Part shown: positions 38,531 through 47,660 of the stretch, piece after piece
Layout of the letters: each line of letters starts with the position of its first letter
How positions within the stretch are numbered: position 1 is the first letter of the stretch
From: an uncultured Sphaerobacteraceae bacterium
GTDB taxonomy: Bacteria > Chloroflexota > Chloroflexia > Thermomicrobiales > UBA6265
Direction of reading: 5' to 3'
NCBI GenBank assembly: GCA_964461025.1
Contig: CAYWSE010000014.1
Location: forward strand, 1,094-65,093
Length of the DNA stretch: 64,000 nt
The notes under the pieces: model-generated
Database searches by the model: none
What the model saw: the letters and a program-made list of their open reading frames with translations, nothing else
Told to the model about the DNA's origin: nothing
Program-made: the position numbers and the translations under genes

Positions 38531-39556
38531 ATGAGCGCCGTCACTCCTCAGTTCGAGATAGTCAAGGTTTTCGCATTCGACGCTACCGGCATCGCCGAGG
38601 GCTCGGTGTCGGGTCTTGCCGACGATGGCACGTTTGCGGGATTCGACCACGTGAATGGCAGCGCTGCGCCCGCAATCTGGGATTCGAGTGGCAACCGAAC
38701 GCTGCTCGACACGAGTGGGATCAGCTTTACGTCCGTCAACCGGAGCGTTCTGGTTCAAAGCTCCCAGCTCGTTGCAGCAAACCTCTGGAATGACGAGCCG
38801 AATGCATGGCCACGTTACTTCGGGGTTCGATGGCAAGGGGCAACCACGGAAGTGCTCGGCGGCACGGCGGTTACTGTGAACGATATGAATAGTGACGGGA
38901 AAGTTTCAGGCATCCGTGACTCGAATGTCGCGCATTGGGATTCAATGGGCTCGTCCGGCTGGATGGGCGTGAACAGCGACGCCGCAATGATCAATGCCTT
39001 TGGCGACGTCGCCTACTTCACTCCGCCGGTCGTGGACCGTGAAACGAATGTCAGGACACGACGGGAGCTGTCCGTCTGGAAAATGAACGGACCCGACGAG
39101 ATCCTGCGTTATCCGCCTGATCTCGACGCGCAGATCGATGCCCAAACGTGGAGCAACGAGAGTCTGCTCCGCTATTACGACGATGGCAGCGCGCTGGCGC
39201 ATATTCAGATCCCGTACGCAGAAGGGCGATATCGACGAACCGTCCGTTGCCGGACGACCGGAGGAGACTATATCGAGGGGTTAACGGGCCGAGGTGTCCA
39301 GATCCTGATCGCAAACAGGACCGGCATGATGCACGGCTACTCCTATGACGACAGCCAGCCGTTCCATCTCCGGAATCGCGCGATACATACAGTCTGGATC
39401 GACGGTGTCCCCATTCGATTTCTGCATCAGGTCACCAACGCGGCGGATTACTCGGACTATCAGGTGACAACCCTGAGTGATTCCGGTCGAATCGCCGGCG
39501 TTGCCCGGGACAAATCCACCGGCGCCTGGCACGGAGTCTTGTTCAACCGCAAGTAG
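38531..39556 (+). CDS. Hypothetical protein (possible HAF-type repeats)
   Basis: 341-aa ORF with repeated segments of type VNDMNSDGKVSG / LSDSGRIAGVARDKSTGAWHGVLF. No obvious signal peptide. Confidence 0.55.
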   Translation: MSAVTPQFEIVKVFAFDATGIAEGSVSGLADDGTFAGFDHVNGSAAPAIWDSSGNRTLLDTSGISFTSVNRSVLVQSSQLVAANLWNDEPNAWPRYFGVRWQGATTEVLGGTAVTVNDMNSDGKVSGIRDSNVAHWDSMGSSGWMGVNSDAAMINAFGDVAYFTPPVVDRETNVRTRRELSVWKMNGPDEILRYPPDLDAQIDAQTWSNESLLRYYDDGSALAHIQIPYAEGRYRRTVRCRTTGGDYIEGLTGRGVQILIANRTGMMHGYSYDDSQPFHLRNRAIHTVWIDGVPIRFLHQVTNAADYSDYQVTTLSDSGRIAGVARDKSTGAWHGVLFNRK

Positions 39557-39626: not shown

Positions 39627-39980
39627 ACGACGAGCCAATCCGAGTCAGTCGGCTGCGTTTGTCGGAGGGCTCGCGTCGTACTTCGGCGCACCTCGGCGCC
39701 GGATCGGCGTCTCTGACCGGTGCAACAATGTCCGGACGCGACCGATGGAGTATCCGCTGTCGTCGGACAATTAGTGGATCGAATGATCGTTTGAAGGGTG
39801 GCAAGACACCTGTCAGTAGTTCGTTGAATTCACATCCGGCCAAGTAGCAAAGTATAATAGAACGCATGTACTTGCGTGACTGATCAGACCGCGTATCGAG
39901 AGCGATCTGATTCGAATCGTCTCAGACGAGCGTCAGGCTTCTCACCAAGTCTGGAAGGCAATCGATTGGAAACCGAGCAC

Positions 39981-40358
39981 ATGGAACACCCGGTCACAAT
40001 GAGTGGTTGGCTCGAACTTGCACTCGCTCACATAGCTGCCTATCTGAATGACGACGAGTACGCTGACCTGGATGACGTAGCCCGAGCCTCGACTGCGATC
40101 GATCGTGCGCGCGCTTTGCTCCCACCTGAACCGCCTGACTACCCCAATGTCTCGATTGATGGCGATGGACTGCCGGTTTGCGAGTGCGGAAGTCGGGAAG
40201 ACTGGAAGGAATTTGGGAAGACCGTCTATTCGCAGCGGTTCGATGGTGCTTCCTGGTTGGACTATGAGACGTTCGTCGAGGGAGATGTTCCCGAGTTCGT
40301 ACAATGCGCAGTTTGCGAACGTGAGTACAACTCATCTACGTTTCCACGACCGAACTAG
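39981..40358 (+). CDS. Hypothetical protein with putative zinc-ribbon (CxC...CxxC)
   Basis: The ORF extends to GTG 39876. ATG 39981 gives MEHPVTMSGWLE. Cys pairs VCECGS and QCAVCE. Acidic protein in a visibly AT-richer stretch. Confidence 0.45.
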   Translation: MEHPVTMSGWLELALAHIAAYLNDDEYADLDDVARASTAIDRARALLPPEPPDYPNVSIDGDGLPVCECGSREDWKEFGKTVYSQRFDGASWLDYETFVEGDVPEFVQCAVCEREYNSSTFPRPN

Positions 40359-44071: not shown

Positions 44072-44345
44072 TGCATCACTCCTGAGCGACTAGCAGACCG
44101 GTCGGACACAGGGAAGCCTTCCCTCTACGTCGCGCGGGTCCTATCGATCACCGTGGGCAGCATGCCCGTAGTCCTGGCGGTGTTCGCCGAGATACGGCGA
44201 GTATAGGCGAGCAGCTAGCAAGTCTCAATTCTGATTCGTTGTAAAGAAAGGCGATTGTGGCAGGGCGCTGGTGGGTGATCGTGGATACTTGGCTCCCACG
44301 GAGATGACCGGACATGTTCGCGTCATTGCCGATACGATAGGAATC

Positions 44346-45152
44346 ATGATGACGATGACGCAAACGGGTCCTGACATTCGTACTGTGCAGGCCACGCGGT
44401 ATGTGACGCCGTTGCGCGAAGGCGGCTCGTTGCCGGCGATCATGGAGGCGGATGACGACGGGCTGTATGTCGTCAAATTTCGCGGCGCGGGGCAAGGACC
44501 AAAGTCGCTGGTGGCGGAATTGATCACGGGAGAGATTGGCCGCGCGCTCGGATTGCGTGTGCCTGACATGGTGATCATCGACGTCGATGAAGCGCTCAGC
44601 AATGCAGAACCCGATCCGGAGATCCAGGAATTGCTGCGAAAGAGCGCCGGAATCAACGTCGGCGTCGATTTTCTGCCCGGTTCGCTGGCCTTTACGCCGA
44701 GCGCAAAATCACCAATCGACCCGGAATTCGCGACGGCGGTCGTCTGGTTCGATGCGCTGTCGATGAACGTCGATCGCACGCCGCGCAACCCAAATATGCT
44801 CGTCTGGCATGGTCAGCCCTGGTTGATCGACCATGGGGCTTCGATTTACGTGCAGCACGTCACGCCTGACTTTGCCGATCGGGCAGGTTCTCCTTTCGCC
44901 CAGATCAGTGACCATGTGCTCCTGCCGTGGGTCGGTGACATTGCGGCTGCCGGCAACCAGCTCTCCGCTGTGCTGACGCCAGATCGCCTCGATGCGATCG
45001 TGGATATCGTCCCGGCCGAGTTGATTGGCGATGGAAGCGAGGCGGAGGTCGAGCAATTCAGGCAAACCTATTCGCAGTTCTTCCGGGATCGCGTGCGGCA
45101 ACGATCCGCATTCGAAGAGGAGGTGGCCCGTGCCCGGGCGAGCTCCCTTTGA
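44346..45152 (+). CDS. Atypical kinase, PI3/4-kinase/HipA-like fold (paralog 1)
   Basis: YVVKFRGAGQGPKSLVAELITGEIGRALGL (ATP-lysine strand plus helix), VVWFDALSMNVDRTPRNPNMLVW (catalytic DR..RN.N loop), WLIDHGASIY (metal-binding Asp). Start ATG 44346 (AGGA upstream). The ORF extends to GTG 44271. Confidence 0.65.
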   Translation: MMTMTQTGPDIRTVQATRYVTPLREGGSLPAIMEADDDGLYVVKFRGAGQGPKSLVAELITGEIGRALGLRVPDMVIIDVDEALSNAEPDPEIQELLRKSAGINVGVDFLPGSLAFTPSAKSPIDPEFATAVVWFDALSMNVDRTPRNPNMLVWHGQPWLIDHGASIYVQHVTPDFADRAGSPFAQISDHVLLPWVGDIAAAGNQLSAVLTPDRLDAIVDIVPAELIGDGSEAEVEQFRQTYSQFFRDRVRQRSAFEEEVARARASSL

Positions 45153-45561
45153 ATATGTCGTGCTTCGCATCATGCCGAGGGTCGATCGAGGCGAGTTCAT
45201 CAACGCCGGGGTGATGCTCATTTGCCGGCCGCACGCATTTCTTGGCGCCCGGACGCTTTTCGAGCCGGATCGGGTCCAGTCGCTCGATCCGTCGCTGACA
45301 CCGATCGAGCTCGACGCGATCGGGGAGCAACTTGCCCAGCTCTGCGCCATCGCGCATGGCGATGCGGCGGCCAATCCGCTTGCCGGACTTTCGATGAACG
45401 AACGATGGCACTTGCTGAGCGCTCCCGCCAGCACGGTACTGCAACCATCTCCTGTGCATACTGGTCTCTGCCTCGACCCTGCCGCAGAGCTCGATGATCT
45501 CTTCGTTGCCCTCGTTGCCAGGACCGATCCGGAAACGGCGGATCGGTTGCTGGAGAAGTAA
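45130..45561 (+). CDS. DUF3037-like protein
   Basis: GTG 45130 is preceded by GAGGAGG and overlaps the upstream gene by 23 nt. The N-terminus FEYVVLRIMPRVDRGEFINAGVMLICR matches my recollection of the DUF3037 signature. Confidence 0.6.
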   Translation: MPGRAPFEYVVLRIMPRVDRGEFINAGVMLICRPHAFLGARTLFEPDRVQSLDPSLTPIELDAIGEQLAQLCAIAHGDAAANPLAGLSMNERWHLLSAPASTVLQPSPVHTGLCLDPAAELDDLFVALVARTDPETADRLLEK

Positions 45562-45568
45562 GGGGGGT

Positions 45569-46462
45569 GTGTTGGCTCAACCGGTATCCGGAATCCGTGG
45601 ACGATTCAGGTCTGACGCCTCAGGCAGACGCGCCGACGACATTCCCCGACTGAAGGGCATGCAGGTGCATTCGGCGATCGGCAGAGGGCGATCGCGCCCG
45701 ATCGTGATCGAAGCGAGCGACGGTCAGCAGTATGTGGTGAAGCTGCGGGCGTCGGAAAAGACGGCTCGCCGGTTGATCGCGGAAGTCATTTGCTGGTCGA
45801 TGGCGTCTGTCGCCGGTATTCCACAACCGCCGATCGCGTTGATCGAGGTCGACGATACGATCGGCGGACTCGAATCAATCGGCACTGACAAAGCGACGGA
45901 ACTGGTTGAATCGCGGGGGTTGGTTTTCGGATCGCTTCAGATGCCGGGAACGGCGACGCTGCGACGCGGCGCCGATCCGCCCATGACCGCCGAAGAAGCG
46001 GCGGCGATCGTCTGGTTCGACGCATTGGTGCTGAATGCCGACCGAAAATGGCGCAACCCGAACATCCTCACGAAGGAAGGTCGATACTGGGTCATCGACA
46101 ACGATTCCGCGTTCAACCTGCATCACCGCTGGGCCGAACCAGCAAAGCGATCTCCCTATCTGATATCGCCGGTGAGCGGGCTCACCTGGTGGCAGAAAAA
46201 CGACAATGTTCTTTTACCGTGGGCGTCCTCAGTGGCGGACGCTGGCGATGAGATGGTGCGCCGGATCGATGATCGGGTCATCGACGATGCCGTCAGTGCG
46301 GTGCCCGATACATGGTTTGCCGATGGATTCCCGCAGGGGAGCATCATGGAACCGGCGGATGCCTACCGGGAGTTTCTCTGGAACCGTTTGCGACTGCGCC
46401 GGGATTTCGAAGCGAATGCCGATGACGCCCGGCGTCATGGGGCATGTCTGGAACGTGCCTGA
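45569..46462 (+). CDS. Atypical kinase, PI3/4-kinase/HipA-like fold (paralog 2, divergent)
   Basis: YVVKLRASEKTARRLIAEVICWSMASVAGI, IVWFDALVLNADRKWRNPNILTK and WVIDNDSAFN align with paralog 1. GTG 45569 is 7 nt after the upstream stop. ATG 45659 is an alternative start. Confidence 0.6.
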   Translation: MLAQPVSGIRGRFRSDASGRRADDIPRLKGMQVHSAIGRGRSRPIVIEASDGQQYVVKLRASEKTARRLIAEVICWSMASVAGIPQPPIALIEVDDTIGGLESIGTDKATELVESRGLVFGSLQMPGTATLRRGADPPMTAEEAAAIVWFDALVLNADRKWRNPNILTKEGRYWVIDNDSAFNLHHRWAEPAKRSPYLISPVSGLTWWQKNDNVLLPWASSVADAGDEMVRRIDDRVIDDAVSAVPDTWFADGFPQGSIMEPADAYREFLWNRLRLRRDFEANADDARRHGACLERA

Positions 46463-46482
46463 CTCATGATACCCAACCGTAC

Positions 46483-46508
46483 GCATCGACCTCCGTGTCG
46501 ATGCTTTG
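46483..46508 (+). terminator. Intrinsic terminator-like hairpin after the kinase cassette
   Basis: gcatcgac (46483-90) / loop ctccgt / gtcgatgc (46497-504), followed by ttt. 20 nt after the stop at 46462. Confidence 0.55.
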
Positions 46509-46685
46509 GCCCGCAGGGCCATGAAACTGTCCCATGGTCGGCAGGCTTCGAGAGAAAGCGGTCGAAACCGCGCGCAGTTGTGGTCTCACGCCGCTGCGCT
46601 CCTCCGCTCCGTTCGACCACAGGCAAACATGAAGGTTCTTCCCTACGAGCAAGGCCGTCGCTGCGCACCGTTTTCCTATGACAGT

Positions 46686-47660
46686 TCAGGAGACTTCGAA
46701 GGTCTCGATCATGCCGAGAGAAGCGTGCGATGCGCCATCATGTTCGGGATCGGGCATCCAGCAGACCATGCCGTAGGCGCCTGGTTCGAAGCTGGTGATG
46801 ATCCATTGCCGTGAACCGTCTGACTGGATTGCCGAGTAAAAAGGCGTGACGCCGTAGTCGAATCCTTCCGGCAACCCAAGAGCCGGGTCGGGTTCGGCGT
46901 CCGCGGGTGCGGTCATGAACGCTTCGAGCTGTTCGGGTGTAACCAGATCGGTGATCTTCACGAACTCGATGTACATCGGTTGTGAGCTCTGGTTGGTGAT
47001 CTCGATAATCTGGCGCTCAGTGGAGAACTCACCCTCGATGTCGAAACGAAACTCATCGTTCTCGCTGACCCCGGTTATGCTCATAGTGGCCTGGGGGATT
47101 GACTGTATAGACGGGGGACTGCCGGTCACGGTGAGCGGAATGGCGGCCGGATCGTACGAATCTGCCCAGATCACCCAGTTGCCGGCGGCAAGATCGACGA
47201 TACCCTGCTCGGTTGTGCCCGGCGTCGGCGAAACGCCGCCGGCCAGAGTCATGTCGTAGAGCCAGCTGAGATCGGGTCCGCCGCCGGGAAACTCGGTCTC
47301 CGGCGTGGCAACCGGTTCGACCCGGCCCGCAGTCTCAGCGAGCTTCCGGTTGAAGTCGTCGACCGTCCAGTCACCGGGCAGCAGGGCGAACGCAGTCGTA
47401 CCGAATTCGCGCTCGCCTTCGTAGGAAACCGTCACAAGATACCGCCCGGCGCTGAGTTCGGCGGGAGCATCCCAGCCTTCGTCGGTGGCGGCGATGACAA
47501 TCTCCGGCAAGCCGAGGTCCTCTCCGGTCAGCAGTTCGTCATCGTCCTGCAACGCGGCAACGGGTCCGAGGTGGGACGACATGAGCAACGACGCGGCAAT
47601 CAGCAGCGCAGTGATCATCATGGTCGTGGTGCGTCGTTGTCGCGACATGGCGTTGTTCAT
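46686..47660 (-). CDS. Secreted hypothetical protein with cupredoxin-like C-terminal motif
   Basis: Signal peptide MMITALLIAASLLMSSHLGPVAA. C-terminus GAYGMVCWMPDPEHDGASHASLGMIETFEV has a Cys...His...Met pattern. Starts 8 nt after the sucB stop. Confidence 0.6.
   Translation of the reverse strand: MNNAMSRQRRTTTMMITALLIAASLLMSSHLGPVAALQDDDELLTGEDLGLPEIVIAATDEGWDAPAELSAGRYLVTVSYEGEREFGTTAFALLPGDWTVDDFNRKLAETAGRVEPVATPETEFPGGGPDLSWLYDMTLAGGVSPTPGTTEQGIVDLAAGNWVIWADSYDPAAIPLTVTGSPPSIQSIPQATMSITGVSENDEFRFDIEGEFSTERQIIEITNQSSQPMYIEFVKITDLVTPEQLEAFMTAPADAEPDPALGLPEGFDYGVTPFYSAIQSDGSRQWIITSFEPGAYGMVCWMPDPEHDGASHASLGMIETFEVS

Follow-up and report, generated by a model that had tools for sequence, protein, structure and literature searches.

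Gene organization of the A–B–C operon

The 64,000-nt stretch of DNA analyzed herein (hereafter the window) was positions 1,094 to 65,093 (forward strand) of contig CAYWSE010000014.1 from an uncultured Sphaerobacteraceae bacterium of the Thermomicrobiales (assembly GCA_964461025.1), and it carried a three-gene, translationally coupled operon composed of kinase gene A, DUF3037 gene B, and second kinase gene C (Table 1). A preliminary description of the window had listed three coupled plus-strand open reading frames (ORFs), a 23-nt A/B overlap, a 7-nt gap from the stop of B to the start of C, a GAGGAGG ribosome-binding site for B, and about 270 nt of noncoding DNA before A; all of these were read again in the sequence, the noncoding part measuring 274 nt.

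Table 1. Features of the A–B–C locus (window coordinates)
Feature	Position	Strand	Basis or remark
Intergenic region between divergent peptide ATP-binding cassette (ABC) transporter operon (SBP_bac_5) and gene A	44072–44345		274 nt
Gene A: HipA_2-family kinase, 'A-type', 268 aa	44346–45152	+	ORF reading and family matches
Shine-Dalgarno GAGGAGG of gene B	45117–45123	+	Read from sequence
Gene B: DUF3037-only protein, 143 aa	45130–45561	+	ORF reading and Pfam
Gene C: divergent HipA_2 kinase, 'C-type', 297 aa	45569–46462	+	ORF reading and Pfam
Tandem hairpins 3′ of C	46483–46521	+	RNA fold; possibly weak terminator

Gene A started with ATG 44346 and stopped with TGA (45150–45152), the ORF itself opening at GTG 44271; gene B started with GTG 45130 and stopped with TAA (45559–45561). 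The GAGGAGG lay within the 3′ end of A, 6 nt before GTG 45130, and this GTG was taken as the start of B because homologs of B opened with MP(x)R(A/S)PFEY. Gene C, ending at 46462, had two possible starts (GTG 45569 and TTG 45572), and its public record (P0121, 267 aa) began at ATG 45659. The peptide DIPRLKG of C, encoded upstream of ATG 45659, aligned with DIRTVQA of A and with other C-types; because homology reached 5′ of ATG 45659, an upstream start was preferred. The true start of C was probably GTG 45569 or TTG 45572, and the database entry P0121 looks N-terminally truncated. In homologous loci, B and C overlapped by up to 4 nt or were separated by up to 41 nt.

Kinases A and C

The two kinases shared 31% identity over 266 aa (BLASTP, E 7e-39), a similarity far beyond chance that identified them, on sequence comparison, as paralogs. 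Every motif pair quoted in the preliminary description was present (A/C): YVVKFR/YVVKLR, LVAELI/LIAEVI, VVWFDALSMNVDRTPRNPNML/IVWFDALVLNADRKWRNPNIL, and WLIDHG/WVIDND. Both proteins matched Pfam PF20613 HipA_2 (A: 63 bits, E 3e-17; C: 75.6 bits, E 4.5e-21) above its gathering cut-off of 27 bits, as well as PADLOC model PDC-M66A (A: E 1e-22; C: E 2e-23); PHROG families 3162 (A) and 5137 were also matched, both of them having no assigned function, and NCBIfam contained no model for A or B. Only positions ~4–155 of the 240 positions of HipA_2 aligned to A and C, and thus their C-terminal lobe was divergent.

A and C both kept G/S/P in the glycine loop, Lys in beta3, Glu in alphaC, the N-x-DR-xx-RN-x-N of the catalytic loop, and the ID motif that binds Mg. 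Residues K58, E72, N156, D158, R159, N163, N165, and I176–D177 (C numbering) were invariant across the A-types and C-types aligned; in the 59-sequence alignment, those from K58 to N165 were invariant, and the G-x-S-x-P loop, R162, and the ID motif were nearly so (at least 90%). The AlphaFold model of C, built from the 59-sequence alignment, had a predicted local distance difference test (pLDDT) score of 88.4 and a disordered N-terminus of ~25 aa. Its best match in the PDB was CtkA (E 6.5e-5, template modeling [TM] score 0.53, probability 1.0), followed by Fam20 and the kinase domains of VPS34 and ATM (E ~1e-3 and TM score ~0.4 for the latter two). CtkA (Helicobacter pylori JHP0940; PDB 3akk) was likewise a compact HipA-like Ser/Thr kinase, but it shared just 12% sequence identity with C, and it was a secreted pro-inflammatory kinase having no DUF3037 partner. 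The sequence and profile matches place A and C among HipA_2-family protein-kinase-like enzymes, as the preliminary description had proposed in calling them HipA-like.

The further assignment of A and C to PI3/PI4 kinases did not stand at the family level: neither protein matched PI3_PI4_kinase PF00454 at E ≤ 1. Canonical HipA domains fared little differently, with HipA_C PF07804 found below threshold in C only (E 0.016, 15.3 bits against a cut-off of 30.5), and no HipA_N domain above threshold in either protein. The PDB was also searched with sequence profiles from the kinase and DUF3037 alignments, which gave no match. On the model of C, the kinase fold and its fold-level PI3K resemblance are real, with the family membership being that of HipA_2. 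It is worth considering A and C as small-molecule or lipid kinases (PI3/PI4-kinase-like or aminoglycoside-phosphotransferase-like) of a metabolic pathway, with B as an accessory subunit. Such a role would fit the matches of C to VPS34 and ATM, a PI3_PI4_kinase match below threshold in a Bacteroides homolog (E 0.0055), and the weak likeness of C to TIGR03843 (the PI3/PI4-kinase-like, actinobacterial SCO1664 family), which was confined to the surroundings of the catalytic loop and left C outside that family (E 0.026, 13.9 bits against a cut-off of 172). However, none of these matches reached its family threshold, the significant ones being HipA_2 and the protein kinase CtkA; moreover, the validated relatives act as toxins (see below), and no metabolic neighbor was conserved. 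This role was therefore regarded as very improbable.

DUF3037 protein B

The stretch FEYVVLRIMPRVDRGEFINAGVMLICR, from which B had been recognized as DUF3037-like, was present in B, and the recognition was borne out by a full-length match to Pfam PF11236 DUF3037 (114.4 bits against a cut-off of 22.6, E 5e-33, profile positions 1–118 of 118). PADLOC model PDC-M66B was matched as well (E 3e-9), but over model positions 4–136 of 281 only. The AlphaFold model of B (87 sequences) had a pLDDT of 92.9; a Foldseek search with it gave no significant match in the PDB (best E 0.5, TM score 0.27), and among viral models it matched only four uncharacterized proteins of 125–287 aa. A structure of the A–B or B–C complex would be informative, because this confident DUF3037 model had no PDB relative. 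The short DUF3037 proteins shared the invariant polar residues R20, E22, N25, R92, S101, T102, Q105, and H110.

Comparison with known kinase–DUF3037 systems

A strong association links DUF3037 with HipA-like kinases, and PADLOC defines the pair as PDC-M66. In the operon of Retron-Sda1, deletion of the kinase abolished defense, while deletion of DUF3037 was toxic (PMC12548924). DS-6, renamed HipAD, is a validated two-gene phage defense system in which a kinase catalytic mutant loses defense, and AlphaFold3 predicted an interaction between its A and B proteins as well as DNA binding for DS-6B (PMC13092281, citing Brenes & Laub 2025). The statement that DUF3037 had no assigned function is thus superseded by the Retron-Sda1 and HipAD/DS-6 studies, which give it a role. 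In the literature searched, neither the kinase target nor the way in which DUF3037 neutralizes the kinase was described, and no experiments on the short DUF3037-only form were found.

A tblastn search of phage genomes with A identified Escherichia phage PhiR5_1 (GenBank PV340545), in which genes annotated 'HipA toxin' and 'HipD antitoxin' lay between cI and kil. PhiR5_1 HipA, which matched the whole HipA_2 profile (E 1e-77), shared 30% identity with A and 28% with C; B aligned with the N-terminal 129 aa of the 275-aa HipD (24% identity, E 4e-7). B was on this homology presumed to be an antitoxin or partner, and A, by the same kind of analogy, is presumed to be the toxin of the A–B pair.

Compared to HipAD/DS-6/PDC-M66, the A–B pair of the window shared PF20613 plus PF11236, the order of kinase first and then DUF3037 on the same strand in overlapping genes, matches to both the M66A and M66B models, and common catalytic motifs, but it differed in the following respects: (i) identity was just 24–30%; (ii) B had 143 aa with DUF3037 alone, while HipD had 275 aa with a C-terminal domain; (iii) a third coupled gene, the second kinase, was present in nine contigs; and (iv) the module was chromosomal and syntenic, while HipAD came from E. 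coli prophages. Because of the low identity and the partial HipA_2/HipD coverage, the pair of the window was placed within a known family as a distant branch with a short partner.

Retron-Sda1 likewise contained a kinase–DUF3037 two-gene unit, which works on its own (PMC12548924). Its DUF3037 protein had a C-terminal region resembling the retron type III DNA-binding protein, while B carried no C-terminal domain; and its pair lay beside a retron reverse transcriptase and noncoding RNA, while the window trio had neither of these but an extra kinase. HipBST (E. coli O127, Legionella; PMC9325769) was also a three-gene kinase module, with a small partner neutralizing a HipA-family kinase; it consisted of one kinase HipT, HipS resembling the HipA N-terminal subdomain, and helix-turn-helix (HTH) protein HipB (PMC9325769), while the window trio had two kinases and no HTH protein, and B lacked fold similarity to HipS. 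Canonical HipBA shared with A and C the protein-kinase-like toxin fold of the HipA/CtkA branch, but A and C had ~270–300 aa (440 aa in canonical HipA), contained no HipA_N/HipA_C above threshold, and were accompanied by no HipB, the gene order being toxin-first, the reverse of that in HipBA.

The preliminary claim of a novel system needs to be divided: the pairing of a kinase with DUF3037 was already known (PDC-M66, HipAD/DS-6), but the kinase–DUF3037–kinase layout with a DUF3037-only partner was a real, conserved, and very rare variation.

Distribution of the A–B pair

A DUF3037 profile scan of one genome per GTDB species matched at least 597 stretches, and the closest 80 were analyzed. These 80 loci belonged mostly to Chloroflexota and Actinomycetota, together with a few from Acidobacteriota and others, and 79 of them had an A-type kinase directly upstream of DUF3037 on the same strand (frameshifted in L011). 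The adjacency of DUF3037 and kinase genes asked about in the preliminary description was thereby found, but the accompanying enrichment of defense genes was not. The DUF3037 proteins of close relatives had 126–199 aa (mostly 126–147), nearly all of them being the short DUF3037-only form. The pair occurred in unrelated contexts across phyla, and elsewhere in the genome in other Thermomicrobiales; its two phage matches were both of the long form, its 11 plasmid records were mostly very large replicons, and the short form was rare on phages and plasmids. A–B was a widespread ancestral unit.

Clustering of the neighbors of the 80 A–B loci gave no conserved third partner; a cluster covering 30 loci consisted of shadow ORFs opposite the kinase. 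Two kinds of genes recurred near the pair in subsets of loci: (i) a PknB-type Ser/Thr kinase (Pfam Pkinase) within ~2 kb in L029, L036, L038, L040, L041, and L065 (five actinobacterial loci and one from Ktedonobacterales), which could reflect lineage synteny or a functional link; and (ii) a ~330-aa putative regulator gene with an HTH-like N-terminus a few kb from A–B in the six Chloroflexota loci L004, L020, L027, L028, L033, and L055, directly upstream of A–B in two of them.

C-type kinases and the A–B–C trio

Among the 80 closest loci, a second kinase downstream of DUF3037 was found only in L001, a metagenome-assembled genome of Thermomicrobiales. A search with C returned 17 C-type clusters at ≥45% identity, followed by a gap to the A-types at ≤38%; a HMMER search of 1.84 billion 50%-identity representatives with a C-type profile returned three C-types (473, 309, and 287 bits), the next match scoring 176 bits. 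The C-type clade was confined to one Thermomicrobiales subclade. All nine C-bearing contigs (the window, L001, L081–L084, L089, L090, and L091) carried the complete trio, confirming its conservation as neighbors; C lay directly downstream of A–B wherever it was found and never alone.

In a neighbor-joining tree rooted on PhiR5_1 HipA, the C-types were monophyletic and sister to all short-form A-types, and the trio genomes had A and C subtrees that mirrored each other, which indicated co-inheritance. The 13 C-type proteins compared were 44–74% identical and shared 61 invariant columns including all catalytic residues, and such invariance showed purifying selection on C. Compared to the A-types, the C-types displayed four distinctive features (C residues): (i) a Ser/Thr-rich [AS][ST]xKTARR in the beta3–alphaC loop (~59–68), where A-types had GAGQGPK; (ii) IDNDSA (~178–181), where A-types had IDHGA; (iii) an 8-aa insert with invariant WW (~199–208); and (iv) a C-terminal tail RxxGxCxER with an invariant Cys (~288–296).

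C was a lineage-restricted accessory paralog. That it might be a decaying duplicate or a pseudokinase having no function was considered in view of its 31% identity to A, its absence from most lineages, and its loss or absence in L087 and L088 (see below). However, the 61 positions invariant across the 13 C-types covered every catalytic residue, the C ORF was intact in most of the nine contigs (truncated in two long-read contigs only), the model of C had a confident kinase fold, and the conserved residues, read from sequence, do not suggest pseudokinase status. This conservation pattern effectively refuted the idea of a decaying C, which was left as extremely improbable.

Chromosomal slot beside sucAB

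The common layout of the locus was a divergent peptide ABC operon (SBP_bac_5), A–B–C, a convergent gene for a secreted protein of 310–324 aa, sucB, and sucA; it was read in the window, L001, L082, L083, L084, L089, and L091, with a different upstream gene in L081. Every trio with readable flanks occupied this slot beside sucAB. The genomes having the module in this slot were diverged from that of the window, their SucA/SucB being just 67–83% identical to those of the window. Across the syntenic loci, identity to the window proteins was 70–88% for flanking housekeeping genes (the frameshifted long-read contig L081 excluded), 58–69% for A, 49–65% for B, and 46–58% for C.

L087 and L088 had A–B only in the slot: the former, a long-read contig with several split genes, contained the 324-aa gene but no C, and in the latter A–B directly adjoined sucB, the 324-aa gene being absent. 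With these two loci holding A–B alone, A–B is old at the locus and C is an accessory that was gained or lost. Substitutions of B specific to trio genomes were examined as a possible adaptation to C and rejected as such: they amounted to five lineage-marker positions, at least two of which were probably shared with the C-less L087/L088.

Split ORFs were seen at L087 4216–5023 and 5407–6418, L084 1531–1950, and L090 2809–3590, affecting A, B, the 324-aa gene, or sucB. Because L087 and L090 look like long-read assemblies, indel errors were the likely cause, with real pseudogenization being possible.

Proposed function of the module

The best explanation of the operon, given about an even chance of being correct, was a HipAD-type kinase/DUF3037 toxin–antitoxin module with C as an accessory second kinase. 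The earlier toxin–antitoxin or abortive-infection idea agrees, by analogy, with the experiments on distant homologs (PMC12548924, PMC13092281). A would be a growth-arresting Ser/Thr kinase kept inactive by direct binding of B; if B were lost or displaced, e.g., under phage attack or another stress, phosphorylation of an essential target by the kinase would stop growth. A possible target, judging from HipA-family toxins, is a translation factor, e.g., an aminoacyl-tRNA synthetase. C would act as a second active kinase effector dependent on the same partner B, and the resulting toxin–antitoxin–toxin layout may broaden the range of targets or triggers. Because B lacked the C-terminal domain of HipD/DS-6B, DNA binding may be absent, which would suggest a purely post-translational control.

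The following observations weighed against this toxin–antitoxin explanation: (i) the validated relatives are just 24–30% identical; (ii) the DUF3037 proteins of those relatives had an additional C-terminal domain (DUF1829 in DS-6B, or a DNA-binding-like region), while B had none; (iii) the invariant polar residues of short DUF3037 could reflect a ligand-binding or catalytic role instead of that of a simple inhibitor; (iv) a promoter scan and an alignment of six syntenic loci found no promoter for A, and a repeat scan of leader and operon found short inverted repeats only, with no convincing operator; (v) the GC content of the module and that at its third codon positions (GC3) equaled those of the host; (vi) PADLOC found no defense genes among 10 flanking ORFs of the window (~10 kb), where its sole matches were to one ABC-transporter ATPase, or among the 146 nearest neighbors of the 80 A–B loci; and (vii) the occupation of one chromosomal slot across diverged genomes was unusual for rapidly turning-over defense or toxin–antitoxin loci. 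All PADLOC matches within the 25 families listed for these neighbors came from four generic Ser/Thr kinases, and the neighbors comprised transporters, CoA ligases, aminotransferases, regulators, and a few PknB-type kinases; the module did not reside in a defense island. The preliminary view of an accessory module wedged between unrelated operons lost its support because of the fixed synteny, the host-like composition, and the lack of defense genes nearby.

Fixed synteny beside sucAB across diverged Thermomicrobiales, host-like GC and GC3, a neighborhood having no defense genes, the rarity of the short form on phages and plasmids, the missing C-terminal domain of the validated antitoxins HipD and DS-6B, and the many invariant polar residues of short DUF3037 would all fit a housekeeping or domesticated signaling module, in which a stable chromosomal regulatory kinase cannot do without its partner, be it an activator, an adaptor, or a substrate, and C feeds the same partner. 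This was considered the main rival, possible but clearly less probable: both genes were, in the same order, homologous to systems in which a toxic kinase is neutralized by DUF3037, DefensePredictor reports defense systems outside islands (PMC13092281), the pair lay in unrelated contexts in other phyla as mobile modules do, and C was gained or lost while A–B stayed.

Different relations of C to A–B were weighed against the second-effector role contained in the toxin–antitoxin explanation. A kinase cascade or phospho-switch, with C phosphorylating A or B (or A phosphorylating C), would make C a regulator of A–B and parallel the division of labor in tripartite HipBST; it would account for C being always downstream of A–B and never alone, for the C-type-specific Ser/Thr-rich loop, WW insert, and RxxGxCxER tail not found in A-types, and for the invariant Ser101/Thr102 of B. 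However, a phosphorylation relationship among A, B, and C had no direct support, C kept every catalytic residue as a normal effector kinase would, A–B was present in almost all lineages with no C, and B resembled neither HipS nor the HipA N-domain in fold; this regulatory role was held to be unlikely. A broader conjecture, rated as rather unlikely, was that short DUF3037 serves as a hub holding two different HipA_2 kinases in one complex (toxin–antitoxin–toxin), or that the two kinases form a circuit in which short DUF3037 is a phospho-regulated switch and C senses or resets the system. If true, it would represent a tripartite architecture not described for HipAD/PDC-M66 and inherited vertically at a housekeeping site next to sucAB instead of in a mobile defense island; such inheritance would hint that its role in Thermomicrobiales is physiological (stress or dormancy).

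The demonstration that the pair is a kinase-based toxin–antitoxin defense system is recent and covers only long-HipD pairs, found in E. coli prophages and at a retron locus. Since one DUF3037 protein is paired here with two divergent, catalytically intact kinases, the locus offers a handle on partner specificity; it is experimentally tractable and constitutes a natural experiment on two kinases with one partner. Its stable inheritance outside defense islands also touches on the question of whether all such modules serve immunity.

Regions flanking the operon

The 324-aa gene (46686–47660, minus strand), left unmentioned in the preliminary description, lay between C and sucB, and its product had an N-terminal signal/transmembrane-like segment but matched nothing in Pfam, PADLOC, or PHROG. 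Among the syntenic loci with a readable downstream flank, only L088 lacked it; the others had it between C (or B) and sucB at 40–61% identity. Being convergent with the trio, it was probably not part of the operon. Further upstream, a gene beyond the ABC operon in L089 (1–136) carried a precomputed Pfam label KwaA (Kiwa defense); the window ORFs 38531–39553 and 39876–40355 had no Pfam/PADLOC match, and no equivalent of KwaA was detected there.

Downstream of C, the first tandem hairpin (46483–46504) had a perfect 8-bp stem followed by UUU, and the second (46507–46521) a 6-bp stem; a 68-nt stretch containing the first one folded at −23.1 kcal/mol (z = −2.8). The hairpin part of the 'hairpin plus TTT terminator' described at 46483–46508 was thus present, but the terminator role of the tandem hairpins was weak, because just three U followed the stem and a terminator scan made no call at 46483–46504.

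An Rfam scan of leader and operon gave no RNA element, and the ~115 nt adjoining A showed no conservation in the alignment of the six syntenic loci. Farther from A, the promoter scan placed a minus-strand sigma-70-like promoter in the leader (−35 TTGAGA at 44228–44223; −10 TATACT at 44205–44200), accompanied by hairpin GGGCAGCATGCCC at 44155–44167. In the six-locus alignment, block 44155–44228 was conserved in four to five loci; as promoter and leader, it belonged to the divergent peptide ABC-transporter operon and not to the trio.

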